Shown here piece by piece: positions 6,509 through 58,969 of a stretch of 64,000 bases of DNA. The number at the start of each line of letters is the position of its first letter. The first letter of the stretch is position 1. Source of the stretch: Minisyncoccota bacterium (GTDB lineage: Bacteria > Patescibacteriota > Minisyncoccia > Phycocordibacterales > SW-6-46-9); assembly GCA_040905385.1 (NCBI GenBank), contig JBBDRP010000002.1, forward strand, positions 459,526 through 523,525. Reading direction: 5' to 3'. The notes below the pieces were generated by a model. That model made no database searches. It worked only from the letters and a program-made list of their open reading frames with translations, and had not been told where the DNA came from. A program made the position numbers and the translations under genes.

Positions 6509-9127
6509 TTACAATACGTCCTTCAAATACTCCCCCGTTACCGAATCCTTGTTCTCTACGAGCTGCTCGGGTGTTCCTTTAGCAACAATTTTTCCGCCGT
6601 GCTCACCACCACCTGGTCCCATATCAATCACGTAGTCGGCATTTTTTATAATATCTAAATTGTGCTCGATCACCATCACGGTGTTTCCCATATCCACCAG
6701 CTCCTGCAGAATGGTTGTCAGCTGGCGCACATCATCGTAATGCAGACCAACCGTCGGTTCATCCAGGAGGTAAATCGTTTTTTTGGTATGCCGACGATAC
6801 AACTCCGAAGCGATCTTGATTCGCTGTGCCTCACCACCGGAGAGTGTGGTTGATGGCTGGCCCAGCTCTAGGTACGACAACCCGACGCGCACCAGTGTTT
6901 CCAGTCGGTCGGCAATCGGCGGAATATCCTCAAAAAACTCAGCCGCTTCCTCGATTGTCATCGATAATACCTGGAAGATATTCTGCCCTTTATACGTGAT
7001 ATCCAGTGTGTCCTCGGTAAATCGCCGACCATTACAGACCTCGCACGGCACGTGCACCGTTGGCAGAAAGTGCATCTCGATCTTCTGCTCCCCTTTTCCT
7101 TTGCAGGCCTCACAGCGACCGCCGGAGGTATTAAAAGAAAATCGACTCTTGGTAAAACCACGCACCTTCGCCTGCTTGGTCTCGGCGAAGAGGTCACGAA
7201 TGTAATCAAAGGCACTGGTGTATGTAGCCGGGTTAGAACGGCTCGAACGTCCAATTGGCGACTGATCAATCATTACTGCTCGGGCTAGATACTCACTACC
7301 GGCAAATTCGCTACAGTTCACGGGATCCTGTGCGGCCGTCCGGTCATGGTAAATACGCTTGAGGTTCTTGTATAGAATATCGTACAGGAATGATGACTTG
7401 CCCGAGCCGGATACCCCACTAAGTGCGATTAGCTTCCCAAGCGGCAACTGCACATTAAGCCCGTTAATATTATGACGCTTGCCGCCTTTTATACGTAAAT
7501 GACCATTATTCTCCGTACGACGCTTCTCTGGGTACGGGGTAACCTCCTTGCCTTGTAGATACTTCAGGGTTAGCGATTTTTCGGCCGCCTTGTCATCCTT
7601 CATAAGCTCTTTTATTGGGCCATTTGCCATCACCTCTCCGCCATGCACACCAGCCCGTGGTCCAAGATCCAGTAGATGATCCGACGCCTCGATGGTCTGA
7701 CGATCATGTTCTACCACCAGGACAGAGTTACCAATATCACGGAGATTATGAAGTGTGCTAAGCAATCTGTCGGTATCGCGCGAGTGCAGACCAATGGTTG
7801 GCTCATCCAGTACGTACAGCGCACCAACCAACTTACTGCCTAGCTGGCTGGCCAGCCGAATTCGCTGCGCCTCACCACCAGACAGCGTATTGGCTCGGCG
7901 ATCCAGGGTTAGGTACTCAACACCAACATCCGCCATAAAAGAAAGCCGATCGGAAATCTCGCGTGAAACAACATCCACCACCTTCTGCTTGGATCCCTCG
8001 ATCTCAAGATCTGTATACCAGTCAAGCGCTCCTTCAACGGTTAGAGCGACAAACTCGGATATATTCAGCCGCTCATCACCGGCCGTAAGAAAGACGTTCC
8101 GTGCGGCCTCACGCAGTCGGGCACCTTCACAGTCTGGGCACGGCTTACTACCACGAAACTCAGTGGTACCAAGTCCATTACAGGTCGGGCAGGCGCCGTA
8201 TGGCGAGTTGAAGGAGAAAAGTCGTGGCTCAATCTCCGGAAATGAGTACCCATCATACGGGCAGGTAAACTGTGATGACATTAATTTTCCGATAGTATTC
8301 CTTCCTGAGTCGCTTGCCCCGTAGCCGGAGCCTTGCGACGTGGTACCGGGGCCTATCCAAACCCGTACGAGTCCTTCCGCTTCATTAAGAGATCGTTCAA
8401 CTGCTTCGGCCAATCGATCACGAACGTCCCCGCCGTCGCGGGATTTACCCTTACCGGAAAATTCCTCTAATGAAATTGCGTCCACGAGGACATCGATGTC
8501 ATGCGTAGTGTGCTTTTCGAGCACGATCTGTTCACGCAGGCGCTTGGTCTCACCATCAATCAGAACCTGGCTGTAGCCACGCTCGAGTAGATTGTATAGA
8601 AGCTGGTAGTACTCTCCTTTCCGACCACGCACAATTGGCGCGTAGATGTAAACTGCCAGATCGTCGGTGCTTTTCACTTCTTCAAGTTTCTCCTCTACCT
8701 GCTCCCCAATCAGTCGCTGTATTTCCTCGGCCGACAGCTTCTCAATCGGTCGACCACACTCAAGACAGTGTGGCGTACCGACACGTGCAAACAGGATTCG
8801 CAGATAATCATACGTCTCGGTGATGGTTGCCACAGTTGAACGTGGATTATTTGATCTTGACGATTGATCAATCGATATAGCTGGGCTTAATCCCGTAATC
8901 TCGTCAACATCCGGGCGCTGCATCCGGTCTAAGAACTGGCGAGCGTAGCTAGACAGTGATTCAACGTACCGTCGCTGCCCTTCGGCAAAGATGGTATCAA
9001 AAGCCAGAGATGACTTTCCAGAACCAGATACGCCGGTAATAGCCACCAACTCACCACGCGGAATCTCCACGTTTATATCTTTAAGATTGTGCGTCCGAGC
9101 CCCCTTAATTTTTATACTATCATTCAT
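6509..9127 (-). CDS. uvrA: excinuclease ABC subunit A
   Basis: Two ABC ATPase modules: [14 protein letters not shown] and a second GVSGSGKSS. Zinc-finger Cys pairs. N-terminus [32 protein letters not shown]. The in-frame upstream GTG at 9172 is an alternative start. Confidence 0.9.
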
Positions 9128-21765: not shown

Positions 21766-24402
21766 TTAACTACTTATTACGTCATCCCATTTTTCTTCAA
21801 ACTTTTCGTTCACGTCCTCGGTATAGAATGGCATGCCGACGAGTCGATAATCTTTGTCTTCGTAAACTGTCTTCAGATCATACTCTTCTTCGATTTCTTT
21901 TAAAAATTCTTCCTTCCATTTCTCTCCTTCACGCAGGTGCTCACCTTTCGGCTCAATGAAAAGCTGATAATGCACGTCTTTCTTGCCAGAATCACGTAAA
22001 AATAGCACAAAGTCGGGCTCAAGTGGCTTACCGTCAGAAAAGCGATACAGCTGAAACAGCTTCTGATTTCTCAGCAAGTAAATCTCTTCGTACTTTTTCC
22101 GTAACTCCTGCTCAGCATCACTGATAAACTGCACCAAAGACTTCTCTTCTGATGTTCCGTAATTTTTGTCGTAGACGTACCAGTCCTTCTCATCAAGATC
22201 CATCTGATGAAGCGATTGTGACTCCCGCATTTCCACACCGCGCTGCTGATCACCAGATTCATCCAGCGATATCTTCATTTCCTTATCCTTCACAACCACC
22301 TTAATCGCCTTCGGCACAAACTTCTTTGTTCCTTTATACTCAGTAATCTCTTTCTTTACATTATCCAAAACTTGCTTCAACACCCCTTTAGCAATATCAA
22401 ACTTATCCTGCTGTGAAAGATCTCCATAGATACGCTCCTGTAACCCTTTCACAGAAACTTTAACTGAAGCCAGAAACGTATCACTAGAGATAAATTCTTC
22501 CCGGCTTACAAGCTGCGGAAAGCGCTTCTTGAGCGAATGAAAATCAAACCCCTCCAAGCTATCCATGGCCGCTCGGATAACGTGGTCACCTAGATCACTA
22601 AGCTTCATCGGTCTGCTGCTAACTTCTCGGACAACCTGATCTTCTTCAAACGCAGTCTGCTCCTGCGTATCTCCACTGTATATACGATATGAATACTCTT
22701 CAGCAGAGAAATCAAATTCATCATCGGAAAAAACATCCTCCGGCAGACGTTCACGTTTCTCATTCACCCATAAAATACCCTTCTTCCAGAACGGAGTTTT
22801 CTTTATCTCTTCTTTAACTTTTAGAAATACCTCTTTTGAATTATCTGGGATTATTCCTACATCCTTAAGTGCCTGCTTCAGCTCTGAAATATATCTCACA
22901 TTCGAAGCACTATGATAATGTAACTCCTCTAAAATCCGCAAATCATTATTAATATCTTCATCATATTTACGCCTTCCTCTTTCTTGATCTTTGTCGACTT
23001 GAAATGGGTAATAACGAGCCCCCCGACCAATCAGCTGTGCTTCCTGGACTGTAGTTTGTCCAGGAACACCCTCTCTCGCATCACGACTGTCATAAAGTCG
23101 AACAATGTCGAAAAGATTCAAAACATCCCAACCTTCATTAAGTGCCTCCACAGCAAAAACTACTCTGATTTCGTTATCTTCATCCTCAAGCGAGTTGATA
23201 ACTATCTGCTTTTCCCCTTTGTCTTTTTTTGTATCTGAATCTACAGAAATAGCTCTCTCTTCCCCAAACTCAACCTTTAATTCTTTTATCAAGTTTCCTA
23301 ATGCAACATTTTGTTCATTAAAATAAACAAAAGCTTCTTCAACAACCCCATCTGCCTTATTTCTTATTTCTTGTAAATCCTTGACAGTCAATTTATTCAA
23401 TTTTTCGTAGAATTTTTTTCTAAACTCAGATGAAACTACTTTAGTCTTAGGATCAGGAGTTGTAGGCGTATTTACATAGTTTGACTTAAACATCACTACC
23501 GGCTTAAGTGCAATTCCATGATCTTCCGCTACCTTACGTCTATACTGACTTACGACAATTGCCTGCAATGCTCGCTTAATTGCAGGTAAATCAGTTTGTA
23601 GTAACTGAATTTCTTTAGAAAATTTATCGATACGAAACTCCTTAAGAGAGTATCGAAATAATAACTTATCCTCATACTTCTCCGCTACAGATGAATGAGA
23701 TAAATTGGCGGTTGCAGTAAATTCCAACAAAATATTTTCCTTATTTAAATTAAGTATTTCAATAACAGTACCCTCCCAAGACCTCTCTTCTTTTTCTTCT
23801 TTTTTGGTCAACTTAGACTTCGTTAAAGCATCGAGATTATGTGCCTCATCTGCAATTAAAGCTGTTTTACTTCTGCTTAATTCATCAAAAGTTATTTCAT
23901 TCTCTTTAGGGAAATGACGCCTTCTATGTAAAGAAGATGTTGTAGTAAAGATAATATTGATATCATCCTTATTTACGCCTTCAAAATTATCAACTGATTG
24001 AATGTTAATATGCTTGCCATCGATCACGATTTGGTCATTAAAAAGATATTTATTTCCCGCAGAATTCAAGAAATTTTCCTTTGTCTTCTCAATAATATTC
24101 CCAAGTCGAGTAAAAAAGATAAAGTTTCGGTAGCCTCGCTTGTAGAGCTGGAGAATATTTGCCGCCATGACGAGCGTCTTTCCCGACCCTGTCGCCATCT
24201 CATACAAAAGTTGAGTCGGCTTCTGACGCAGATTTTCGTGATCCATATAGAAATCAAAGCGACCTATCGCCTCCTTCTGATACTTCCGCAGTTCAAAGTC
24301 AGACCGGAGATTATCTGCTACCACATCACCAACCCGTGATGTGAAGATATCCGGACCTTCTATATCATGATAGCTATTCAGTTTTTCATTCAATGTTGGC
24401 AT
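21766..24402 (-). CDS. res: Type III restriction enzyme Res subunit (helicase-nuclease)
   Basis: Motif I MATGSGKTLV, motif II IADEAHNL (DEAH), C-terminal PD-(D/E)xK (EPDFVLF ... FIEPKG). 878 aa. Confidence 0.8.
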   Translation of the reverse strand: MPTLNEKLNSYHDIEGPDIFTSRVGDVVADNLRSDFELRKYQKEAIGRFDFYMDHENLRQKPTQLLYEMATGSGKTLVMAANILQLYKRGYRNFIFFTRLGNIIEKTKENFLNSAGNKYLFNDQIVIDGKHINIQSVDNFEGVNKDDINIIFTTTSSLHRRRHFPKENEITFDELSRSKTALIADEAHNLDALTKSKLTKKEEKEERSWEGTVIEILNLNKENILLEFTATANLSHSSVAEKYEDKLLFRYSLKEFRIDKFSKEIQLLQTDLPAIKRALQAIVVSQYRRKVAEDHGIALKPVVMFKSNYVNTPTTPDPKTKVVSSEFRKKFYEKLNKLTVKDLQEIRNKADGVVEEAFVYFNEQNVALGNLIKELKVEFGEERAISVDSDTKKDKGEKQIVINSLEDEDNEIRVVFAVEALNEGWDVLNLFDIVRLYDSRDAREGVPGQTTVQEAQLIGRGARYYPFQVDKDQERGRRKYDEDINNDLRILEELHYHSASNVRYISELKQALKDVGIIPDNSKEVFLKVKEEIKKTPFWKKGILWVNEKRERLPEDVFSDDEFDFSAEEYSYRIYSGDTQEQTAFEEDQVVREVSSRPMKLSDLGDHVIRAAMDSLEGFDFHSLKKRFPQLVSREEFISSDTFLASVKVSVKGLQERIYGDLSQQDKFDIAKGVLKQVLDNVKKEITEYKGTKKFVPKAIKVVVKDKEMKISLDESGDQQRGVEMRESQSLHQMDLDEKDWYVYDKNYGTSEEKSLVQFISDAEQELRKKYEEIYLLRNQKLFQLYRFSDGKPLEPDFVLFLRDSGKKDVHYQLFIEPKGEHLREGEKWKEEFLKEIEEEYDLKTVYEDKDYRLVGMPFYTEDVNEKFEEKWDDVISS

Positions 24403-24412
24403 GGCTACGTAT

Positions 24413-25900
24413 TTAATTTCTTCGATAATTCACTTTAATAATAGGTTTATATCCTGCATTTTGAACCTCTTTTTTCCAATCGACTAATTTCATTAGAAAA
24501 ATAAGTGACTTAGTATCCGAAATGTTTTCTAGATCTTTCTTTTTATCTAAAACTATCCAAAGGCAAATATTCTTCACTTGCTTTTTTTGACCGTCAATTT
24601 CTATTTCATTATCATTGTGTTGTAACAACCTTAATGTATTCATCGATTGATCTACTACATAATTCATCTTTCCAGTTTGACCCACTTTGACAAAGTATAT
24701 TGTTTCACCTTTGTATAAATCCATCTTTTCAACTGAATACCTATCGCCAATTTGCTCTACAGTAGTGTGAGTGCTTAGATAATCATTATTCTCAAGCATT
24801 TCTATGAATTCATCCTCTCCTACTCCTGAAGATATATCATGTTCTGCGCCATACTCTAGGTCGATTTTATCAACTTCACTTTTTAAGGAATCTAAGTAAG
24901 ACTCATTAAATTTGTACCACCTTCCGTCAACCAAACAATTGCGTTCATCGTCAGAATAATCGAGTAATTCTTTTATGGATTTTGTAAACTGATTTCCAGT
25001 ATCTTTAAATACTTTCACTTTAATCTTTGAAAAATCACGAGGTATTTCCATATCATTAGATGACACAAAGTCCTGTAAATCTTTTATACTGATGTCACCA
25101 GCCTCTGACTCATTAACCTCCTGATAAACTTTATATAATTTATATCTATAATCTGACTGAAAAATAAAATTAACTCCCAAAACAGAGAATTCATCCATAG
25201 AAATATCTGCTTCCATGATTTTTTCCGCCAGTTTCTTATCTAGTTCTTCTATTTCACGTTCTTCCGTTATCTTTTGTGCTCTAGGAATGGAAAAAATCGG
25301 ATCCTTTTTTAGGTCCTTTCTAATATTATCTAAAACTTCAGGAAGTTCTATTAATGTAATATCGAGGCTGAATTTAGCAGAAGTTCCACAATGCACCTTA
25401 CTTCCATACTTTTCTTCATCATCTGGAATGCCTTTTAAATACCCTATAGACTCTCCACTATCAAACGTAATTATAGACTCAGAAATATAGCTGGTAATAG
25501 TCTTGCTTTTGATGCTCTTATAAAACTTTGAGTTTTTCATCTTTATCGACTCCGGATCAAGTATTCTTTCTGCAAAATTCAAACCGAAGTCCGGATCGCA
25601 AAACTGCTGTAAATAAAAATATGTTTTACCAAAAGAGACCACATAATACTCATCTTCTTTTTCAGCAACAAGAGCTCCGAATTGGGATTTATTTTTGTAA
25701 TCCCCCTGATCTTCAAGGAAATCTTCACATAAATCAAGCCACCATACCTCACTGGGATCCGGGTTCTTTGAGATGTAGAAAGTCATGGAATATCCTCCCA
25801 GATTGTTATTTTTTTGTTTTTTAAGACCTACTTTAGAAAACTTTTTAAATAAATCCTGTATATTCTCTTCTGAAATTTTGTATATATTAAATGTTGCCAT
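24413..25900 (-). CDS. uncharacterised 495-aa protein encoded between Type III mod and res
   Basis: No recognisable motif. About 30% GC. Start overlaps the mod stop by 14 nt. Ends 10 nt before the res start. Confidence 0.7.
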   Translation of the reverse strand: MATFNIYKISEENIQDLFKKFSKVGLKKQKNNNLGGYSMTFYISKNPDPSEVWWLDLCEDFLEDQGDYKNKSQFGALVAEKEDEYYVVSFGKTYFYLQQFCDPDFGLNFAERILDPESIKMKNSKFYKSIKSKTITSYISESIITFDSGESIGYLKGIPDDEEKYGSKVHCGTSAKFSLDITLIELPEVLDNIRKDLKKDPIFSIPRAQKITEEREIEELDKKLAEKIMEADISMDEFSVLGVNFIFQSDYRYKLYKVYQEVNESEAGDISIKDLQDFVSSNDMEIPRDFSKIKVKVFKDTGNQFTKSIKELLDYSDDERNCLVDGRWYKFNESYLDSLKSEVDKIDLEYGAEHDISSGVGEDEFIEMLENNDYLSTHTTVEQIGDRYSVEKMDLYKGETIYFVKVGQTGKMNYVVDQSMNTLRLLQHNDNEIEIDGQKKQVKNICLWIVLDKKKDLENISDTKSLIFLMKLVDWKKEVQNAGYKPIIKVNYRRN

Positions 25901-27845
25901 AAAATTCTTTATTTAGATCTTTGTCATCCTCACTGATTTCATATCGTTTATCAGCGATATCGCCATAGTTTACGTAGAGGTGGTTGTTATCAAGCACATC
26001 TAGGAGGAACTTTTGCATGTCTTCTTTAAGAAGATCATTGAAGCTTTCAGCTTCCTCATTGATTTTCTCCAGGTCAACCTGCCAGGAGAGAAAGCCGTTC
26101 TCCTGGATCTCCTTCCAGATCTTCTTAAGCTCAGATACCTTGGCTGACTTTATCTGCTCGCGATACTCCTGATTCGATTTTGCAAGCTCAGCGAATACAA
26201 CATCACCGCCACCCTCCCACTGAACATCAGAAGATACACCGCTCTCCTCTCCTTCAATTACATTCTTAAGACGAGATCTCATCTTTTTTATATGGCTACT
26301 TAATTGCTCCACCATAATATATTTACGAGACATTTTGTGAGCAACAGCACCAGTTGTTCCAGATCCTGCAAAAAAGTCCATTACAATGTCACCCTCATCG
26401 GTAGCCAAATCTATAATTCTTTTTAAAAGCTTTTCTGGCTTTTTCCCAAACCTTAGGTCAACTCCTCCTTCGTTTGCTAGATTATTGATACCGATATCAG
26501 TCCATATATCACCAAGTGCTTCGACTGGAGTTTTTTTACCTCTTATAGTTTGCACCTTATCTGCAGCAAATACCACATCCTCTCCCTTATAAACAAAGTA
26601 ATATGAATCATCTAAATTTGTCACTTTGGAAAACTTATCACTAGGCAAATTTGAATAATCTGCACCTCTATTACGAGCTGTTCGAAATATCTTATCGGCA
26701 TTATCTAATTTAAACTGATTCACCTGAGACTCATTATTTGAATCTATGTCTGCACGCTTTATTGCTTGATTTAATGTGATTATCTCCCATTTTTCACAGT
26801 CTTTTTCATTAAACCCTTTTTTATTAATAAAAGAAGTGTATCTATCAAGCGCATCATCCCAAGATGCAGGGCTGTATTGAGGTGTGATTTGTGGATTATC
26901 TGACTTTGAATACATTAGTATATATTCTTTTATTTTAGGAATTTTTTTATCCTTATGAGCCATTTTTACACCACTTAAATAAGACATTTGAACGCAAATA
27001 TTTGTCTGAAAAGATTTTCTCTGAAACACTTCATCACATAAATTCTTTAAATAACTTTGTTCAATGTCATCTATTTGTATAAATATAAATCCATCATCCG
27101 AAAGAAGTTTATCAGCCACATCTAATCTATTCCTCATAAATGTTAGCCAAGTAGAGTGATTAAAGCTATCATTATAAGAGAAGTTGTCTCTATCTGTGTT
27201 GTAAGGTGGATCAATATAAATAAGCTTCACCTTGCCCGCAAAACGCTCTTTGAGTGAATGTAGCGCCAGCAGGTTATTGCCCTGGAGAACAAGATTCTCC
27301 TCCAGATTACCCTTATCATCTTCCTTCAGCTCCTCAACCTCATGCTCGCCGTCTTTGTCGATTCGCTGCCAGTCTGTGAGTGCCTTTGGTTCGAAAAGGC
27401 GGCGGATCTCATCCGGAGCCAGAGTTTCGTTCCAGAAGATTTCATCACGCTTGGCGTCTTCTTTGGTCTGTCCACCTTCAAGCACGCAGTCTTTGTATGG
27501 CCAGGAGAGCACAACTTCGTTTGAGCGGGAGATAAAGTCGCCGCGATCATTTGTCAGCCCGATCTTGTTTTTGAAGCTTGTGTAGCTGTCGGGGAGAAAA
27601 TCCTTGTTGTGTACAAAAGAGGTGAAGGCATCGACATCAAAAATAGTCGTATCACCGATATCTTTAAAGAACCGCTCCTTTGTCGCCTTATTTTTCAAGA
27701 GTAGCGTAATTAGATCCTCATCAAGCTTTCGCGCCAGCTCGGCAACCTTATTCTTCAGAAGTTTGTCATCCTCAGACACCAGCCGCTCATCCTGGCGGAG
27801 GATATCCTTAATCTCATTCATTGATTGTTTCTGTGATTGCGGCAT
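25887..27845 (-). CDS. mod: Type III R-M Mod subunit (N6-adenine DNA methyltransferase, beta class)
   Basis: Motif IV LIYIDPPYNT precedes motif I VMDFFAGSGTTG. 652 aa. Confidence 0.85.
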   Translation of the reverse strand: MPQSQKQSMNEIKDILRQDERLVSEDDKLLKNKVAELARKLDEDLITLLLKNKATKERFFKDIGDTTIFDVDAFTSFVHNKDFLPDSYTSFKNKIGLTNDRGDFISRSNEVVLSWPYKDCVLEGGQTKEDAKRDEIFWNETLAPDEIRRLFEPKALTDWQRIDKDGEHEVEELKEDDKGNLEENLVLQGNNLLALHSLKERFAGKVKLIYIDPPYNTDRDNFSYNDSFNHSTWLTFMRNRLDVADKLLSDDGFIFIQIDDIEQSYLKNLCDEVFQRKSFQTNICVQMSYLSGVKMAHKDKKIPKIKEYILMYSKSDNPQITPQYSPASWDDALDRYTSFINKKGFNEKDCEKWEIITLNQAIKRADIDSNNESQVNQFKLDNADKIFRTARNRGADYSNLPSDKFSKVTNLDDSYYFVYKGEDVVFAADKVQTIRGKKTPVEALGDIWTDIGINNLANEGGVDLRFGKKPEKLLKRIIDLATDEGDIVMDFFAGSGTTGAVAHKMSRKYIMVEQLSSHIKKMRSRLKNVIEGEESGVSSDVQWEGGGDVVFAELAKSNQEYREQIKSAKVSELKKIWKEIQENGFLSWQVDLEKINEEAESFNDLLKEDMQKFLLDVLDNNHLYVNYGDIADKRYEISEDDKDLNKEFYGNI

Positions 27846-27847
27846 AT

Positions 27848-28984
27848 TTATTCGCTAAAGGCTTTAAGATAGCGCTTGTACTCGAAGCGACGATCGTAGT
27901 TTTTATCTTTGTCTTGTTGCTCTAGTATACCAATATCAACTAATACATCCACAAGCTCGTTGGCAGTTGTTCGTGATAAACCAGTCCAGCTCTCTACTTT
28001 TTTTACACTCACGATCGGCAGCTCATACAGCTTGTTTAGCACAGTTGTTGCATTATCAGCCCGGCGACCGAGCGACTCGGCTTTTTCGAGGTCTTCTTTG
28101 CGAATTTCATGAATAGTGCGCGCAGTTTTAATAGCATCTTCAGATACTTCGGCAATACCACGCAAGAAAAACCGTAACCATGACACGAAATCACCGTCAT
28201 TATGATAGCGGTTAATCAAATCAAAATACCCTTCGCGGTGTTTGCGTAGGTATGCTGATAAATACAATACCGGCTTGTCCAAAAGCTCGAGCTGACACAG
28301 ATAAAATGTAACAAGTAGCCGACCAACCCGCCCGTTGCCGTCAAGAAACGGGTGAATTGTCTCGAACTGAGCATGAGCCAGTGCGGTTTTAACAAGTGGA
28401 GAAGTAACATCATCAGCATGGAGAAATTCTTCTAGGTCACTCATGGCATCTCCAATATGGTCAGCTGGAGGCGGTACAAATTTAGCAGTATCAGGTGAGT
28501 TACCGCCGATCCAGTTCTGACTGGTGCGAAATCTTCCTGGTGTTTTTCCTTTTCCGTCCTCTGTCCCCTCCATCAAAGTTTTGTGGATTTCTTTTATCAA
28601 ACGACTTGATAGCGGCAGATCAGACAATTTACCCAACCCCTCATTCATTGCCTGAATGTACTTACTAATGTTCTCGACATCTTTAGGAATATCTCCCTCA
28701 ACATCAGCATCGACTTTAATAGAGTCGGCCATAGTTGCCATGGTGCCTTCAATCTCAGCAGAATAAGCTGCCTCTTTTCGTACGTACATAAAAATGAAAA
28801 AATCAAGATCTGGAAGAACCTGTGTAATGCCGTCTAACTTACCAAGCGAAAAAAATGCGCGGTCATGCAAAGACTGTAAATCTTCATCAAGAGTAGGAAG
28901 ATTCTTGGGTGGAAACTTTTTAGGTACAAACGCCGTGTACCCTTGGGGTTGTTTGATAAATGTGCCGATATCCATAACATTCAA
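27848..28984 (-). CDS. fic: Fic/DOC family protein (class II, N-terminal inhibitory motif)
   Basis: HPFLDGNGRVGRLL Fic motif. SAEIEG inhibitory helix motif near the N-terminus. C-terminal winged helix. Confidence 0.85.
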   Translation of the reverse strand: MNVMDIGTFIKQPQGYTAFVPKKFPPKNLPTLDEDLQSLHDRAFFSLGKLDGITQVLPDLDFFIFMYVRKEAAYSAEIEGTMATMADSIKVDADVEGDIPKDVENISKYIQAMNEGLGKLSDLPLSSRLIKEIHKTLMEGTEDGKGKTPGRFRTSQNWIGGNSPDTAKFVPPPADHIGDAMSDLEEFLHADDVTSPLVKTALAHAQFETIHPFLDGNGRVGRLLVTFYLCQLELLDKPVLYLSAYLRKHREGYFDLINRYHNDGDFVSWLRFFLRGIAEVSEDAIKTARTIHEIRKEDLEKAESLGRRADNATTVLNKLYELPIVSVKKVESWTGLSRTTANELVDVLVDIGILEQQDKDKNYDRRFEYKRYLKAFSE

Positions 28985-31916: not shown

Positions 31917-32894
31917 TTAATTGACGGACTTTGAAAGTTCTGCGCCGGCTTTGAACTTAACCACGTTCTTAGCGGCTATTTGAATTTCTTTGCCTGTTTG
32001 TGGATTGCGACCGGTGCGTGCAGATCGTTTGCTGATACTGAATGATCCGAAGCCAATGAGTGAGATTCTATCACCCTTTTTGAGCGCTCTCGTTGTTGCG
32101 TTAGTAAAACCTTCAAGTGCTTTTTTGGCATCCGCTTTTGAGAGACCTGCTTTACTTGCGATCTCGTCGATAAGTTCAGCTTTGTTCATTCTTTCCTGTA
32201 TATCATTGTCGTCTCCATCATCCCCGTCGGCATCAACGGGTGATTTAGATGTAGGTTTGTTTGAACGAGACGCGTTATAGCCTTTAGCAGGTGCTACGTT
32301 CTCTCCGCTATTAGATGAACCGTCGTCATCAATACCCTTGATGCCGGGGCCGCCTTTAAATTCGTCAATTTTGCCTCGCGTCGCCTCTGTTTCGCTATCA
32401 CGCCCACCGTGACCAATTTGTGGATTGCGTCCGGTGCGTGCAGATCGTTTGCTGATACTGAATGAACCAAATCCAATCAATGAAATACGATCTCCTTTTT
32501 CCAAAATTTCCGTTGTTACGTTAGTAAAACCTTCAAGCGCTTTTTTTGCATCGGCTTTTGAGATCTTTGCGTCACTAGCGATCGCGTCGATAAGTTCAGC
32601 TTTGTTCATTCTTTCCGATATATCGTCATCCCCGTCGTCACCTCCACCTGATATCTCCGGAAGTTTCTTTTTAAGAATGCGCATGATTTCGTCGCCGTTA
32701 GGAGTATCCTTTTCTGCCTCCACAGCTTGCTTTCCTCTAACAAACTCACCGATTGTTCCGCCGTCATCTCCTCGTTCTTTTTCTTCAGGAGGATTATCAA
32801 TTGAGCGAGCTTCTGCGCTCATAGGCGTCGTGACGGTTAATACTCCAACAATCACAAGAACAATAGCGAATGTAAAGTAATAAAAATATTTCAT
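31917..32894 (-). CDS. secreted protein with two tandem HU/IHF-type DNA-binding domains
   Basis: Signal peptide MKYFYYFTFAIVLVIVGVLTVTTPMSAEA. Two copies of MNKAELID(A/E)IASxAxxSKADAKKALEGFTNxTTxxLxKGDRISLIGFGSFSISKRSARTGRNPQ (HU fold). Confidence 0.75.
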   Translation of the reverse strand: MKYFYYFTFAIVLVIVGVLTVTTPMSAEARSIDNPPEEKERGDDGGTIGEFVRGKQAVEAEKDTPNGDEIMRILKKKLPEISGGGDDGDDDISERMNKAELIDAIASDAKISKADAKKALEGFTNVTTEILEKGDRISLIGFGSFSISKRSARTGRNPQIGHGGRDSETEATRGKIDEFKGGPGIKGIDDDGSSNSGENVAPAKGYNASRSNKPTSKSPVDADGDDGDDNDIQERMNKAELIDEIASKAGLSKADAKKALEGFTNATTRALKKGDRISLIGFGSFSISKRSARTGRNPQTGKEIQIAAKNVVKFKAGAELSKSVN

Positions 32895-33214
32895 AAAAAT
32901 GTGTTTATATTAGAATGTTTAATAATAGTATAATTATGGCATATATATTTATCTCGCACAATGAATATTCAGTTGTTTTTTAAAGTATCATCTGAAATTA
33001 AGAAAATAAATACGCCATTGAGATCAAATATTATTGCCTTCTTCATGAAAGTAGTATATTAAATACCTTTGATATTAAAACTAATCATTGGTATTATACT
33101 GAGGATTCTACTGCCGGATCGCCCGGCCTTCGCACAAGGCTTCGGCGGATAAATATCAATAGCTTCGATTTAGAAATATTTTGAAGTCATTGTTTAATCG
33201 GCTGTGAACAATTT

Positions 33215-33285
33215 TGCCGGATCGTCTAATGGTAGGACGCATGGTTCTGGTCCATGTAATCTAGGTTCGAGTCCTAGTCCGGCAA
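33215..33285 (+). tRNA. tRNA-Gln (anticodon CTG)
   Basis: Cloverleaf folds by hand: acceptor TGCCGGA/TCCGGCA, anticodon stem CATGG/CCATG with loop TTCTGGT, T-arm CTAGG-TTCGAGT-CCTAG. Confidence 0.8.
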
Positions 33286-33463
33286 CAAATTAAACGAAGT
33301 GCGATTTGGTGCCGGAAGCGAGTGCATTTCTGCACTCGCGTCAGGATTCGAAAGCCGCAGTGATGTCTGCGTTTGGCGTAGCCAAGGCGCAGACCACGAG
33401 GCGGGGTCGCGGAATTTTCTTGTCAGAGAAAATATCTGTGACCGAGTCCTAGTCCGGCAACAA
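33286..33463 (+). mobile_element. non-coding insertion downstream of tRNA-Gln ending in a 21-nt direct repeat of the tRNA 3' end
   Basis: cgagtcctagtccggcaacaa occurs at 33268-33288 and 33443-33463. The internal core 33358-33442 is about 75% identical to 52846-52922. Confidence 0.35.
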
Positions 33464-33521
33464 TTCAATACAGCTCTCGCAAACGCTCAAGCTTTACTCA
33501 GTATTTGATATACTAAAATAC

Positions 33522-34040
33522 ATGAATTTCTCAGAACAATTTGATGGTCCAGATAAGCCAGATGATGACAACGAAAACCATGACAGCTACTTAAGCGCAG
33601 AATTTCGGTATTGGGCCTCAGAATTTAAAGATGAGCTTGAGATGCACGGACTGCAGTGGATCCAAAAAGGTGGTGGTGACAGTGATCAATGTCAAGTCAG
33701 GATCAAAAAGGAGTCAGGTTTTGGTAGACAATTTACCGGAGAGGGACAAGGTTGGAAGGAGGCGTTTGAAGATGCTATGGATAAGTACCGCAAACATCTG
33801 GAAAGTCGACCTAAAACCATCTCAGCCAAAGGTCTTTCCTCTGATGAGATAGAGAGAGTGCAGAAGGGTGGAGAAAAAGAATATAGAAAAATAGCGTACG
33901 AAAAAGTACGTGATGCAGCGAAAGTCTCAAAGTTTGGTGAGGTAGAAACAAATTTTTTAAAAATATTTCTTAATGATTTAAAAGAAGAAGATTACGAGAT
34001 TGCAGAAAAAGTAGACAAAGAACTTAAAAGTAGAAAGTGA
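33522..34040 (+). CDS. hypothetical protein (acidic N-terminus)
   Basis: 172-aa ORF. Confidence 0.55.
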   Translation: MNFSEQFDGPDKPDDDNENHDSYLSAEFRYWASEFKDELEMHGLQWIQKGGGDSDQCQVRIKKESGFGRQFTGEGQGWKEAFEDAMDKYRKHLESRPKTISAKGLSSDEIERVQKGGEKEYRKIAYEKVRDAAKVSKFGEVETNFLKIFLNDLKEEDYEIAEKVDKELKSRK

Positions 34041-34151
34041 TAAGCTTACTTTGCTTAAGAAAAGTAAGCAATTCTAGTCTTCACGGTAAAATAATCCTGT
34101 AAACCGAATCTCTGCCCATCCTATGTCAATGAACTGATATTATGCTTACTA

Positions 34152-34592
34152 ATGAATAAATCATCTACAATATATTTCTACGGTGGTGGCTATAACTGTC
34201 TCTCGAACTTTGCCGCCTATCAAGTTGTGTATGACGATAGAATCTGGATGACGGCCGAGCACGCTTATCAGGCACATAAGTTCAATGACACAGATATTCA
34301 GGATGAAATTCAGTCCTGTGCCTCAGCCCATGCTGCCAAACAATTAGCCCATGAATACGGAAACCACGTACGTGAAGACTGGTTTGATATAAATGTTGAA
34401 ATTATGGAGAACATACTACGCGCAAAGCTTTCTAAGCACCAACACATTCAGCAGAAGTTACGGGTGTCAGCGGAAAAAGAACTAGTTGAAGACTCTGATG
34501 ATGAGTTCTGGGGTTGTGGTGAAAATAGAAACGGGAAAAATATGCTTGGAAAACTATGGATAAAGTTACGAAATGAGCTACTAAAGACATAG
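34152..34592 (+). CDS. NADAR (YbiA-like, DUF1768) domain protein
   Basis: IYFYGGGYNCLSNFAAYQVVYDDRIWMTAEHAYQAHKF ... DDEFWGCGENRNGKNMLGKLWIKLR. Confidence 0.75.
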   Translation: MNKSSTIYFYGGGYNCLSNFAAYQVVYDDRIWMTAEHAYQAHKFNDTDIQDEIQSCASAHAAKQLAHEYGNHVREDWFDINVEIMENILRAKLSKHQHIQQKLRVSAEKELVEDSDDEFWGCGENRNGKNMLGKLWIKLRNELLKT

Positions 34593-34667
34593 CTACCACC
34601 CAGTCATAAACTGCCTTGAATTAAACCTTTGCTATACTGATACGTAGACATCCTTAAATTTAGATAA

Positions 34668-35654
34668 ATGGAAATTCTATACTCATTTTTAATAATCTTC
34701 GTAGGCGTCTTTTTTATGATTCAGGCCGGCAAGGTCGTTGTCCGGTCGCTTGGTATCACGGCCCGTTTTCTGCGACTGTCTGAGTATGTCTTATCATTTA
34801 TTCTCATCGCCCTGGCCACGTCTCTTCCGGAGCTTGCTGTCGGCGTAAACTCAGCGATCCTCGGCATTCCAGAACTTTCGCTTGGAGACATTATCGGAAC
34901 CAACATAGTAAACTTCAGCTTAATTCTCGGAGTCGTGGCTATAGTCGGAAGCAATGTAGAATTAAAGGACTACGATCACTTCAAGAAAAATAGATTGTTT
35001 CTGATGTTGGCTGTACTGGCACCAATGATCCTGATTCTGGACGGTACGCTCTCAAGAATTGACGGAGGAGTACTTATCCTGCTTTTTGTGTGGAATATCA
35101 TCAGGCTTCTTGATCTAGATGACATACTTCTCGGCAGAAAAGTTCTGCGACCGCATTTAAGTAAATATGTACACGATAGCGTTGCTACATGGAAAGAATT
35201 CTTAAAACACCTCTTCTTGCTACTAAGTGGGGCGGCTGTATTAATAACCTCTGCCCTATTTATTGTTAGAGCGGCTGAGGATATATCCATAGCCCTAGGT
35301 GTATCTAGCGCGCTAATTGGGGTGCTCGTCATCGCGGTGTGCACAAGTTTGCCTGAGCTCATTGTGGGACTGCGAAGCGTGCGAGCAGACAAAAGCAGCA
35401 TAACGCTCGGTGACATCCTTGGTTCGGCGACGATTAACTCAACCTTGGTTCTTGGTATTGTGACGCTTATATCACCAATTACGTTACAGAATCAAGCGAT
35501 TGTCTGGGTGGGGATACTATTTACTATTGCTTCGCTACTTATGATCTTTTATTTTCTCAAAAGCAAACACTCGATATCGCGCAAAGAGGGGTATTTCCTT
35601 TTCGGGCTCTACATCCTTTTTGTACTAACGCAGCTCGGTATAAATTTCTATTAG
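34668..35654 (+). CDS. Na+/Ca2+ exchanger (CaCA/YrbG-like) membrane transporter
   Basis: Two alpha-repeat regions: GITARFLRLSEYVLSFILIALATSLPEL and a second LGVSSALIGVLVIAVCTSLPEL. Confidence 0.8.
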   Translation: MEILYSFLIIFVGVFFMIQAGKVVVRSLGITARFLRLSEYVLSFILIALATSLPELAVGVNSAILGIPELSLGDIIGTNIVNFSLILGVVAIVGSNVELKDYDHFKKNRLFLMLAVLAPMILILDGTLSRIDGGVLILLFVWNIIRLLDLDDILLGRKVLRPHLSKYVHDSVATWKEFLKHLFLLLSGAAVLITSALFIVRAAEDISIALGVSSALIGVLVIAVCTSLPELIVGLRSVRADKSSITLGDILGSATINSTLVLGIVTLISPITLQNQAIVWVGILFTIASLLMIFYFLKSKHSISRKEGYFLFGLYILFVLTQLGINFY

Positions 35655-52702: not shown

Positions 52703-52786
52703 GCCGGGATGATGGAATTGGTAGACATGCAGCACTCAAAATGCTGTGAGCTTACGCTCGTGAGAGTTCAAATCTCTCTCCCGGCA
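52703..52786 (+). tRNA. tRNA-Leu (anticodon CAA), class II
   Basis: GCCGGGA acceptor, AATTGGTAGA D-loop, anticodon stem CAGCA/TGCTG with loop CTCAAAA, long variable arm, GAGTTCAAATCTC T-arm. Confidence 0.8.
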
Positions 52787-52942
52787 CATCGGGACTAATG
52801 CAAATTTATTTGCATTAGTTGAGATTTGAAAGGCACAGTGATGTTTCTGTTTGAGCGTAGTGAAAGGCAGAAACCACGAGCCGGGGTCGAGAAAAATTTG
52901 CGTCAGAAAATTTATTCGTGACCAAATCTCTCTCCCGGCACA
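52787..52942 (+). mobile_element. non-coding insertion downstream of tRNA-Leu(CAA) ending in a 20-nt direct repeat of the tRNA 3' end, 2 nt before tRNA-Leu(CAG)
   Basis: caaatctctctcccggcaca occurs at 52769-52788 and 52923-52942. Core 52846-52922 is homologous to 33358-33442. Contains the palindrome ctaatgcaaat-tt-atttgcattag. Confidence 0.35.
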
Positions 52943-54129: not shown

Positions 54130-55659
54130 GTGTGCATGAATACACAAACCGGACAGGAAAAAATCGGACAGTTTATTAAGGATCTTCGTCTGCGCAAGCA
54201 GCTAACGCAGACCGAGTTTGCCAAAGCACTTGAGACATCGCAAAGTGCCGTCGCCCGCATTGAAAGCGGTAACCAGAACTTGACCACTTCCCTGCTGGAG
54301 AAGATCAGTGATGCACTTAATCACAAGATCGTCTCGCTGTCGGACAACACGCTGGACTTTCGCATTACCGGCGGCAAGAAGCTTTCTGGAAGCATTCAGA
54401 CCAACACCTCCAAGAACGGCTCTGTTGCACTACTGTGTGCGTCGCTCCTGAATAAAGGCACCACTACACTGCACGGCATCGCCCGGATCGAAGAGGTTTA
54501 CCGGGTTATTGAGATCCTTCAGAGCATAGATATCGATGTAAAGTGGACGGATGATAATATCCTCAGAATTTCCCCACCCAAAGAGTTTGCTATGGATGAG
54601 CTGGATATCGAAGCTGCTCGCCGCGTGCGTTCATCGCTCATGATGATTGGCCCGCTCTCACACGCCCTAGATACTTTTAATCTTCCCCATGCTGGTGGGT
54701 GCAAGATGGGTGAGCGCACCATTGCTGCCCACAAGCACGTCTTCGAGTCGCTAGGACTCGCCATCAGTACCAATGAAGATGACTACGAGATAACCCACAC
54801 CCAGGAGGATCCAGTAGATGAAGTTATTATGTACGAGGCCAGCGATACCGCCACCATCAACGCCCTTCTGCGGGCTGCACGTCTCGAAAGAAAAACGAAG
54901 ATTAGCTTCTGCACCCCTAACTATCAAGTACAGGATATCTGCTTCTTTCTGGAGAAGCTGGGCGTAGAGATAGATGGTATTGGCACCTCTACTCTTATCG
55001 TTCATGGCGTGAGTGATATTGACACAGATGTGGTTCACGAGAATAGTGAGGATCCGATAGAGTCGATGATGTTTATCTCTGCTGCACTGGTTACTAACTC
55101 TGAACTAGAGATTACTCGCTGCCCAATCGACTTTCTGAAACTTGAGCTTCTTAAACTGGAAAAGATGGGCGCGGAGATTGAGCAATCCGATGAATACACC
55201 AGCACAAACGGACGTACAAAGCTGGTTGACCTGACCGTTCACCCATCTGAGCTGAAGGCATTGGACGTAAAGATTCACGCTCTGCCCTACCCCGGGATTA
55301 ATGCCGACAATCTGCCTTTCTTTGTACCGATTGCTACCCAGGCCGAAGGAACCACAAAAATTAACGACTGGATGTGGGAGAACCGAGCCATCTACTTCAC
55401 CGAGCTCAATCGCTTCGGAGCTGATATTGAGCTGGCTGATCCACACCGCGTCTACATCAATGGGCCAACCGAGTTTCGGGCCAGTCAGGTTGTCTGTCCG
55501 CCAGCGCTACGACCATCGGTCATTATTCTGATTGCAATGCTGGCGGCAGAAGGTACCTCTGTGCTGCGTAATGTTTACTCTATCCAGCGCGGCTACGAAA
55601 ACATCGCCGAGCGTCTGAATGATATCGGTGCTGATATTGAGATAATGCACAATATTTAA
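54130..55659 (+). CDS. murA: UDP-N-acetylglucosamine 1-carboxyvinyltransferase with N-terminal XRE-type HTH domain (fusion)
   Basis: aa 13-70: IGQFIKDLRLRKQLTQTEFAKALETSQSAVARIESGNQNLT (HTH_3). From aa about 78: FRITGGKKLSGSIQTNTSKNGSVALLCASLL. Catalytic Cys in PHAGGCKMGERTI. Confidence 0.8.
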   Translation: MCMNTQTGQEKIGQFIKDLRLRKQLTQTEFAKALETSQSAVARIESGNQNLTTSLLEKISDALNHKIVSLSDNTLDFRITGGKKLSGSIQTNTSKNGSVALLCASLLNKGTTTLHGIARIEEVYRVIEILQSIDIDVKWTDDNILRISPPKEFAMDELDIEAARRVRSSLMMIGPLSHALDTFNLPHAGGCKMGERTIAAHKHVFESLGLAISTNEDDYEITHTQEDPVDEVIMYEASDTATINALLRAARLERKTKISFCTPNYQVQDICFFLEKLGVEIDGIGTSTLIVHGVSDIDTDVVHENSEDPIESMMFISAALVTNSELEITRCPIDFLKLELLKLEKMGAEIEQSDEYTSTNGRTKLVDLTVHPSELKALDVKIHALPYPGINADNLPFFVPIATQAEGTTKINDWMWENRAIYFTELNRFGADIELADPHRVYINGPTEFRASQVVCPPALRPSVIILIAMLAAEGTSVLRNVYSIQRGYENIAERLNDIGADIEIMHNI

Positions 55660-58842: not shown

Positions 58843-58887
58843 TATATCAAAAAGCCCGACCTAGAGGCCGGGTTCTTCTTCGTAATG

Positions 58888-58969
58888 TGCGCCGGGCAGG
58901 ATTCGAACCTGCGTAGGCTGTGCCACTGGATTTACAGTCCAGCCCGTTTAACCACTTCGGTACCGACGC
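58888..58969 (-). tRNA. tRNA-Tyr (anticodon GTA), long variable arm
   Basis: Reverse complement GCGTCGG..CTGGA-CTGTAAA-TCCAG-TGGCACAGCCTAC-GCAGG-TTCGAAT-CCTGC-CCGGCGC-A. A terminator hairpin plus TTTTT lies at about 58845-58885. Confidence 0.8.

Follow-up and report, generated by a model that had tools for sequence, protein, structure and literature searches.

A candidate family of small insertion elements with a conserved RNA fold and a replacement gene end at tRNA, topA and rpsI genes of Patescibacteria

A 64,000-nucleotide (nt) stretch of the genome of a Minisyncoccota bacterium (GenBank assembly GCA_040905385.1, contig JBBDRP010000002.1, positions 459,526 to 523,525 of the forward strand; the window) carries a short non-coding insert behind its tRNA-Gln(CUG) gene, bordered by a direct repeat of the tRNA 3' end. 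This insert is probably (at a rough probability of 60%) one unit of a previously unannotated, Patescibacteria-wide family of site-specific insertion elements that lack an open reading frame (ORF) and whose sense RNA would carry a guide pairing with the target. The family is quite likely mobile, with a conserved RNA fold. Targeting by the guide helix is a more tentative component of this reading, with the odds judged to be somewhat against it.

Each unit consists of a copy of its target gene's 3' end, a linker and/or hairpin, one short guide or two, complementary to the first bases of this copy, and a conserved core; it lies behind or within the end of a conserved gene and points in the same direction (Table 1). 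The direct repeat behind tRNA-Gln (21 nt, cgagtcctagtccggcaacaa, with a spacing of 175 nt from start to start) and the hairpin gcgagtgca-tttc-tgcactcgc between its two copies had been reported in an initial annotation of the window and were both confirmed exactly. The right repeat provides the 3' strand of helix P1 and of an acceptor-like helix. The sequence after it, CAATTC..., is presumably the native trailer; an element-free tRNA-Gln gene with the same 3' half has the trailer CAATTAC. By analogy with a filled site and the empty tRNA-Tyr site described below, the left repeat is likely to be the copy carried by the element. Guides X and Y jointly pair with 15 of the 18 nt of tRNA positions 56-73 and are separated by hairpin P0, whose place is conserved among copies and whose sequence is variable. 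The linker motif AAACGAAGTG recurs among elements whose repeat starts in the T-loop (compared: L024, L030, L048; L-numbers name loci from the pattern scan described below), and a CAAAT/ATTTG pair in the linker permits guide X to pair back with the left repeat as well. The core is composed of junction J12 (AAA), helix P2a (gcc/ggc), an internal loop (gca/ga), helix P2b (gtg/cac) with an AU bulge, hairpin P2c, junction J23 (ggg) and helix P3 (gtcgcgg.../...ctgtgac). Upstream of the same tRNA gene, the sequence TGCCGGATCG at 33112-33121 is an exact copy of tRNA-Gln positions 1-10, lying ~95 nt before the tRNA and shortly after a site that resembles a promoter (TTGATA-17-TATTAT with TG, 33069-33097). 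No notable structure was seen in 33098-33214 (z = -1.55). The gene immediately upstream of the tRNA-Gln locus (31917-32894, minus strand) encodes a protein of 325 aa that has two domains of the HU type (Bac_DNA_binding).

Table 1. Coordinates of the two units and associated tRNA genes in the window.
Feature	Position	Strand	Basis or remark
tRNA-Gln(CUG), intact	33215-33286	+	ARAGORN; Rfam tRNA, 60.9 bits; final 18 nt are part of the left repeat
Gln unit, left repeat H (tRNA C56-A73 + CAA)	33268-33288	+	Exact 21-mer cgagtcctagtccggcaacaa
Gln unit, linker with motif AAACGAAGTG	33289-33309	+	Sequence; compared with L024, L030, L048
Gln unit, putative guide X, tgccgga	33310-33316	+	Complement of the acceptor 3' strand of the repeat (tccggca); 7/7 paired in the minimum-free-energy fold
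Gln unit, hairpin P0	33318-33339	+	Branch separating guides X and Y
Gln unit, putative guide Y, aggattcg	33343-33350	+	8/8 pairs with repeat C56-U63; 5' strand of helix P1
Gln unit, predicted three-way-junction core	33351-33442	+	Covariance model, 83.4 bits; RNAalifold, pair counts, G.U versus A.C asymmetry
Gln unit, GTGAC end of core	33438-33442	+	Sequence
Gln unit, right repeat (tail), displaced tRNA 3' end	33443-33463	+	Exact copy of cgagtcctagtccggcaacaa
tRNA-Leu(CAA), intact	52703-52787	+	ARAGORN, Rfam; bears left repeat 52769-52788
Leu unit, putative guide X, tcggga	52789-52794	+	Directly after the repeat, no linker
Leu unit, hairpin P0	52794-52819	+	Sequence
Leu unit, putative guide Y, gagatttg	52821-52828	+	8/8 paired with tail
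Leu unit, conserved core	52829-52922	+	Covariance model, 77.7 bits; GTGAC end at 52918-52922
Leu unit, right repeat (tRNA-Leu(CAA) 3' end, C56-A73 + CA)	52923-52942	+	20-nt exact repeat
tRNA-Leu(CAG)	begins 52945		ARAGORN; 3 nt past the Leu unit
tRNA-Tyr(GUA), empty target site	58887-58969	-	Orthologue in L048 carries a unit of the family

The second unit of the window, behind tRNA-Leu(CAA), shares the overall design of the Gln unit, including an exact 20-nt repeat of the tRNA-Leu 3' end starting at C56, which the initial annotation had missed. When aligned from the junction preceding the first core stem through to GTGAC, the two cores share 70 of 93 bases (75%), as had been estimated before. 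Their stems differ by compensating changes (gtctgcg/cgcagac versus gtttctg/cagaaac), and the differences between the guides of the two units match exactly the differences between their two tRNAs. P1, formed by guide Y and the tail, is fully paired (8/8) in both copies, and both units interrupt the T-loop of their tRNA between T55 and C56. Two core patterns each gave exactly 2 matches in the window, with 0.17 and 0.01 expected, and a covariance model returned the two copies at 83.4 and 77.7 bits, followed by a next match of 8.7 bits. Local tandem duplication of a tRNA gene with subsequent decay of the second copy, also considered in the initial annotation, would explain why guide X of the Gln unit equals tRNA positions 1-7 and the tail positions 56-73. 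It is nevertheless hardly credible, given that guide Y is the exact complement of positions 56-63 rather than the T-stem 5' strand (Leu gagatttg versus tRNA gagagtt), that neither window core resembles a D or anticodon arm, and that the core recurs in protein genes and behind at least 17 tRNA types. Duplication is further contradicted by the synonymous divergence of repeat copies at topA and by the empty orthologous tRNA-Tyr site (see below).

The distribution of the family was determined by an exact-pattern scan of one genome per species and by covariance-model searches. The scan yielded 109 loci, nearly all from metagenome-assembled genomes (MAGs) of Patescibacteria. One locus (L101, Gemmatimonadota) is a chance match, six, of which five lie on contigs < 8 kb, are from MAGs that carry the labels Bdellovibrionales, Gammaproteobacteria or Chitinophagales, some have generic labels such as 'bacterium', and the others bear names from Patescibacteria or the candidate phyla radiation (CPR). 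The covariance model detected 136 copies in 716 kb and 133 copies at E <= 1e-6, these being two overlapping sets of 100 sources each, the second of which comprised 99 of the 109 loci and the window. With more than 130 copies recovered by the two methods, the suggestion of a miniature, ORF-less, tRNA-targeting family flanked by a duplicated tRNA 3' end held up, and the contrary case considered with it, a core absent elsewhere, does not apply. Units measure ~110-190 nt, the larger values being reached where the repeat is long, with a core of ~90-110 nt that ends in GUGAC. The flanking duplication was present throughout the copies examined, with variable sequence to the left of the junction, and some genomes contain at least 6 copies.

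The targets are specific in site and orientation. A same-strand tRNA gene lies < 400 nt upstream of 88 of 110 copies, with 17 amino-acid types represented, and the tRNA repeats begin either at C56 (T-loop class, including both window units) or at N72 (acceptor-end class, the majority) and extend 2-3 nt beyond the discriminator. Members of the acceptor-end class have a single guide, which, together with the 3' end and trailer of the tRNA itself, also makes up a long hairpin; in a large subfamily, this hairpin has a conserved internal loop (CGUUAAG/UAG) and a CUGC loop. Protein genes serve as targets at the 3' end of topA (7 copies) and the last codons of rpsI (2 copies). It is the left repeat copy that completes the topA frame, the right one being the displaced end. 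With the missing gene end supplied by the element, the host gene remains intact. Repeat length spans 3 to at least 53 nt. In four loci (L016, L068, L073 and L091), the unit is preceded by a conserved promoter-like sequence, TTCAAA-N18-TAAAAT, and then ACACCAC and AAACGTTAAG, with no upstream gene end; upstream of these copies, neither ARAGORN (all four) nor Rfam (L016, L073 and L091) called a tmRNA or other RNA gene. The four are possibly transcription units in their own right, or master copies.

Folded as RNA, the Gln unit reached -83.7 to -86.7 kcal/mol (z = -8.8 and -7.8), and the Leu unit gave z = -4.3. In the predicted fold, both guides pair with the downstream repeat, resulting in a three-way junction closed by a tRNA-like acceptor/T minihelix, and the guide-tail helix P1 abuts the last base of the element without a linker. 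The consensus structure of an alignment of 44 copies contained 27 predicted pairs, of which 15 had changed on both sides. Once P1 was included, 91.8% of the cells were paired, compared to 36.8-45.0% for slid partners, and 23 pairs showed changes on both sides. The observed values were matched by 0 of 500 shuffles on four of five measures and by 1 of 500 on the fifth. A 3-bp helix (GNC/GNC) covaries (GC, CG, AU), one P3 pair is G.U in all 44 copies and another in 38 of them. Across the 133 copies, the core helices contained 246 G.U cells versus 15 A.C cells, which identifies the sense strand as the folding strand, as expected if the RNA is read through from the host gene. Covariation in the 44 copies extends to P1, whose inner four pairs are paired in 73-91% of the family. 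About 30 positions do not vary between phyla; the junction purines AAA and GGG are invariant, the internal loop GSA/GA is conserved, and there is an AU bulge. Subfamilies swap GUGAUG/CCAC for other pairs while retaining the GSA/GA loop, the AU bulge, the GGG junction and the base of P3. An assignment of GUGAUG/CGAG as a kink-turn or box C/D motif was rejected, as the covarying 3-bp helix (16-64) sets another register and subfamilies replace GUGAUG/CCAC.

Comparison with known families placed neither unit. At the gathering threshold, Rfam 15 returned only tRNAs in the window and in 8 related loci, so that the locus encodes none of its annotated structured RNAs, a possibility that the initial annotation had held against itself. 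A cmscan of positions 33150-33550 at E <= 10 gave only the tRNA and a chance match to tfoR (11.8 bits), with no match to the hammerhead, hairpin, hepatitis delta virus (HDV)-like, twister, twister-sister, pistol, hatchet or hovlinc ribozymes, and ARAGORN identified no tmRNA in the window and no extra tRNA within the units. These results bear on the idea that the core is an RNA-processing module, such as a new self-cleaving ribozyme or an RNase target, that would cut at GUGAC/N (the slash marking the cleavage point) and thereby set tRNA and mRNA 3' ends, with the repeats as a by-product of acquisition. A compact three-way junction with AAA/GGG junction purines, a GSA/GA loop, an AU bulge and an invariant G.U, together with a guide-tail helix that begins exactly at the last base of the element, would suit such a function. 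However, Rfam 15 has no matching ribozyme even at E <= 10, and the module alone leaves the imported gene ends and the range of targets unexplained. As a complete explanation it is quite unlikely, although it is compatible with the favoured mobile-family reading, for which it could serve as the catalytic step.

No ORF fits inside the unit. All-against-all clustering of the ORFs within 3.5 kb around 110 copies detected no cis-linked protein family that occurred at more than 9 loci. The top 20 neighbour clusters looked like housekeeping genes when their sequences were inspected (topA alone was confirmed with Pfam, on the window's copy), and no reverse-transcriptase-like sequence, which a retron would have beside it, was recognised on inspecting these 20 clusters, without a Pfam scan. 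An ORF of ~220-230 aa recurs outside the element, ending 10-35 nt before a same-strand tRNA-Ile(UAU) or tRNA-Trp gene (L013, L055, L081, L090 and L099). It has weak N-terminal helix-turn-helix (HTH) matches in Pfam and a LAGLIDADG-like stretch (IAGFFLYWGEG) and may be a free-standing homing-endonuclease-like gene tied to these tRNAs. Terminal inverted repeats and a target-site duplication of fixed length, as found in miniature inverted-repeat transposable elements (MITEs) derived from DDE transposons, are lacking, the inverted repeats of both window units being internal (P0; guide X versus repeat) and the repeat length variable in the family.

The initial annotation had called for a search for further copies and for an integrase. 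Copies were plentiful, whereas no integrase-like family was present among the recurrent neighbours of the 110 copies (3.5 kb; neighbours only, not whole genomes). The corresponding explanation is an integrase-dependent miniature element or an attachment-site (att) relic of the type of cis-mobilizable elements (CIMEs), moved by a tyrosine recombinase in trans, with the core as an arm region for the recombinase and accessory proteins. Integrases that target tRNA genes act at T-loop or acceptor-end positions, and e14 and phage 21 carry a replacement gene end in icd. The repeats studied here likewise correspond to the 3' part of the target tRNA gene, starting in the T-loop or acceptor end, and the element also brings a replacement gene end. 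Against this stand the lack of an ORF in the unit and of an integrase-like family among recurrent neighbours, and the occurrence of related cores at at least 17 tRNA types, topA and rpsI, a range for which one sequence-specific integrase cannot account. Moreover, base pairs rather than sequence are conserved, with G.U pairs on the sense strand, which is unexpected for double-stranded protein-binding arms. The element end and the target left of the junction are dissimilar (permutation p = 0.85), and homology of the element end with the tRNA left of C56, suggested by an ATCT match in the Gln unit, was rejected as chance on the same grounds. An att element of this kind is therefore very unlikely, and the earlier notion of a remnant that merely keeps its att arm is at odds with a strongly conserved sense-strand RNA fold, with 5' guides that pair with the repeat and with the lack of an integrase among the recurrent neighbours.

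Evidence for mobility was obtained by comparing related genomes. The window belongs to a Paceibacterota-like genome. The closest genome in the set is that of L048, whose MurA is 89% and a neighbouring protein 86% identical to those of the window. The presence/absence polymorphism for which the initial annotation had proposed to look was found between these two at tRNA-Tyr: the window gene runs directly into its trailer and terminator, whereas its L048 orthologue is followed by a unit, a 20-nt right repeat and then a homologue of the window's trailer and terminator. The core of this unit is 90% identical to that of the window's tRNA-Leu(CAA), so that one subfamily occupies different tRNAs in two closely related genomes. 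Because the right copy, not the left, precedes the native trailer at the filled L048 site, the hairpin and 5' arm of T-loop-class units were rejected as a native tRNA trailer. The search of metagenomes for an exact empty allele of the tRNA-Gln site turned up only a non-orthologous, element-free tRNA-Gln(UUG), and an identical-protein look-up for other tRNA-Gln alleles gave the same strain only. The MurA (EPSP_synthase) encoded at 54130-55659 on the plus strand of the window is fused to an N-terminal XRE-type HTH_3 domain, and this fusion is kept in L048 (89% identity).

At topA, the two repeat copies carry 12 synonymous versus 4 non-synonymous codon differences in L013 and 14 versus 2 in L064 (by codon position [3,2,15] and [4,3,16], respectively). 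The same peptide is thus specified by different codons, which means that one copy evolved as coding sequence in another lineage. The differences fall mostly on the third codon position and are not adenine-specific on inspection, unlike the template pattern of diversity-generating retroelements (DGRs). The guide of L013 pairs perfectly with the left topA copy and via two G.U pairs with the right copy, as would be expected if a synonymous variant were recognised through base pairing. L008 and L088 have a frameshift in the right copy, and in L036 both copies are identical across the 53 nt visible before the contig end.

Copies are also subject to turnover. Tandem arrays mix unlike subtypes and include a 32-nt remnant unit (L021); beside the array of L019, ARAGORN called a tRNA with the anticodon UUA ('tRNA-Stop', 7127-7200, minus strand) that is possibly suppressor-like. 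With regard to SINE-like retroposition by target-primed reverse transcription, which would leave 5'-truncated copies, short 3'-terminal fragments were found in L045, L050 and L068 and as the L021 remnant; fragments of the 3' part are frequent, but BLAST favours the long conserved 3' strand of P3. In L078 (4534-6410), each of five tRNA genes (Cys, Leu-UAA, Lys, Leu-UAG and Leu-CAG) is followed by a unit, two variant core subfamilies without the GUGAUG/CCAC motif being among them, and the counterparts of the tRNA-Cys and tRNA-Leu(UAA) genes in L021 carry no unit. The nearest core resides in the same genome for just 6 of the 73 copies from multi-copy genomes, and cores that are 90-99% identical occupy different targets, including topA and rpsI; those with 92-99% identity lie at different tRNAs, belong to different classes, or are found at topA in one case and a tRNA in the other. 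The right copies in L104 and L113 contain inserts of 5-8 nt, so that these copies cannot be exons that await splicing.

These observations also bear on the strongest alternative, namely a cellular family of tRNA-linked structured small RNAs that is not selfish. Such RNAs would be co-transcribed with tRNAs and freed by RNase Z and RNase P, the tRNA-end repeat existing only to form the needed acceptor/T helix (T-loop class), and they would have spread by ordinary duplication. In keeping with this idea, the sense strand folds strongly, ~30 positions stay the same from phylum to phylum, and copies lie inside tRNA operons. As the Leu unit ends 3 nt before tRNA-Leu(CAG), RNase Z and RNase P would release an RNA of ~157 nt. 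The four stand-alone copies with a conserved promoter-like upstream sequence fit equally, as does the retention of the first 7-10 nt of the tail, which form P1, in copies whose remaining tail has diverged (L015, L038, L042 and L045). However, topA repeats of at least 53 nt and the rpsI repeats meet no structural need beyond ~8 nt, and the synonymous-only divergence of the topA copies points to import from another lineage. The empty orthologous site between the window and its closest genome, the mixed-subtype arrays with remnants, the frameshifted or decayed right copies (L008, L088) and the loss of the acceptor-like helix in several copies argue in the same direction. A purely cellular family is thus unlikely, and a cellular role and mobility can coexist, as the two are not mutually exclusive.

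Viral or plasmid carriage was addressed separately. A megablast of positions 32000-35000 against phage records gave no match. A phage or plasmid origin was rejected, as the strict core pattern returned only chance matches in GC-rich coding DNA from IMG/VR. One 106-kb viral contig of that database (3300031754_000002) contains three loose P3-pattern matches (L124, 10229-10471; L184, 292-337); two of them are in tandem and none is a covariance-model match, and they represent some other repeat. Full-text literature searches retrieved no description of such an element.

Under the favoured mobile-family reading, the native 3' end of the gene would be pushed downstream upon insertion and become the second repeat. 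The unit would then be read through from the host gene, and its sense RNA would fold such that the guide pairs with the repeat (P1) and closes the junction; in the T-loop class, the fold would additionally build the tRNA-like acceptor/T minihelix. We infer that the guide-target helix picks the insertion point, which would amount to RNA- or single-strand-guided homing into tRNA genes, topA and rpsI, with the spare gene end rendering insertion harmless. Joining could follow either of two routes. The RNA itself might act by reversible cleavage and ligation at GUGAC/N, followed by reverse transcription and recombination, or a recombinase or reverse transcriptase might recognise the fold in trans. 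In the boldest version, the element would be a protein-free, RNA-guided mobile ribozyme, whose core would carry out both cleavage and ligation, reversibly, at the base of the guide-target helix. Insertion of the RNA would take place into transcripts or single-stranded DNA of genes whose 3' region matches the 8-16-nt guide and be made heritable by a generic reverse transcriptase and homologous recombination, the spare gene end being carried along. This version is improbable; if true, the element would be a minimal homing system, programmable and self-repairing, that stands apart from introns, transposons and elements based on an integrase.

Several points weigh against the mobile, guide-directed reading. 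All of its support derives from the comparison of DNA. At tRNA-Tyr, the difference between the window and L048 could have arisen by exact loss of a unit between its 20-nt repeats instead of by gain, and the four loci with promoter-like sequences fit a master copy no better than an ordinary cellular RNA gene. Near-identical cores bear different guides and hairpins, which implies that copies either swap guide, hairpin and repeat among themselves or derive all three from the target as template. The repeat of acceptor-end units comprises just 3-9 nt, and their guide is matched no less well by the 3' end and trailer of the tRNA itself (6.3 of 8 pairs) than by the downstream tail (5.9 of 8). The covariation of P1 is confounded, because guide and repeat both come from one target sequence. 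Finally, the family is nearly absent from viral contigs: among 80 loci found with a loose pattern in IMG/VR, one (L146) was a true model match.

If the mobile-family reading is correct, the reduced genomes of the CPR host abundant, unannotated mobile elements made of a small structured RNA and a spare target-gene end, and the tRNA loci of Patescibacteria MAGs could be annotated properly. Assembly breaks might, as a conjecture, be due in part to repeated gene ends of this kind. The insertion site appears to be specified by an 8-16-nt guide, with no recombinase gene in the element, which makes the minimal size for RNA-guided insertion testable. The work adds a well-supported structured RNA motif that is absent from Rfam 15, and even when read conservatively, a family of tRNA-linked small RNAs that has > 130 copies and spans a bacterial superphylum merits description. 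Elsewhere in the window, positions 22000-28000 have a GC content of 0.34-0.40, as against ~0.46 in the remainder, and a strongly negative GC skew, and this region may have been acquired horizontally.

Among known systems, tRNA elements of tyrosine integrases, e14 and phage 21 in icd and the CIMEs share with the family a sense insertion at the conserved 3' part of a gene, an identity block from the T-loop or acceptor end, a replacement gene end and a displaced native end as second repeat. The units described here differ in measuring 110-190 nt with no ORF and no integrase nearby, in using one core family for > 20 target sequences, and in having a conserved single-strand fold with guides complementary to the repeat. 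Group I and II introns, including ORF-less forms and bacterial tRNA group I introns, resemble the units in their conserved structured RNA and a short guide that pairs with the flank, and mobile introns in being transcribed with the host gene and homing to conserved sites. However, the units give no match to intron models, their core has ~90 nt, the guide pairs with the downstream flank only, and the host is rescued by a duplicated gene end instead of splicing, the upstream tRNA being complete in its unspliced form (ARAGORN).

The bridge or seek RNAs of IS110/IS1111 and the omega RNA of TnpB are likewise element-end non-coding RNAs with a programmable target-matching segment, and in omega RNA the scaffold is also directly followed by a target-identical flank. 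Unlike in the IS110/IS1111 and TnpB systems, the unit contains no recombinase or nuclease gene, forms a three-way junction where those RNAs have two internal loops or a TnpB scaffold, and has no Rfam match; unlike in bridge and omega RNAs, an internal guide sequesters the target-identical flank and the repeats are long and variable in length. The palindrome-associated transposable elements (PATEs) of IS200/IS605, with their subterminal hairpins, insertion 3' of a fixed tetra- or pentanucleotide and lack of a flanking duplication, differ from the units, which have such a duplication, variable sequence left of the junction and no Rfam match. A primer-binding site of retroviruses and long terminal repeat (LTR) elements is similarly a complement of a tRNA 3' end that reaches back into the T-loop. 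In the units, by contrast, the complement is split by a hairpin, lacks the CCA part and finds its partner in cis, in a DNA-encoded copy of the tRNA end; the unit has neither LTRs nor a reverse transcriptase, and non-tRNA genes are targeted too.

MITEs, repetitive extragenic palindromic (REP) sequences and REPINs, short interspersed nuclear elements (SINEs) and retrozymes are comparable in being tiny, ORF-less, multi-copy, associated with direct repeats and reliant on functions in trans. The units are set apart from this class by the absence of terminal inverted repeats, by a repeat of 3 to at least 53 nt that always equals a gene end, by strict site and orientation specificity and by the three-way junction with its guide-target helix. 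The tRNA-like domain of tmRNA, YrlA and viral tRNA-like structures recall the T-loop class, which stacks a 7-bp acceptor-like helix on a 7-8-bp T-like helix and has a discriminator; here, however, the core replaces the T-loop, a tag reading frame is missing, ARAGORN and Rfam are silent, the acceptor-end class lacks the minihelix, and the helix sequence copies the upstream gene. The element thus combines a trait of tRNA-targeting elements, the replacement gene end, with a trait of introns and guide RNAs, an RNA that pairs with its target, and it fails the defining tests of each.

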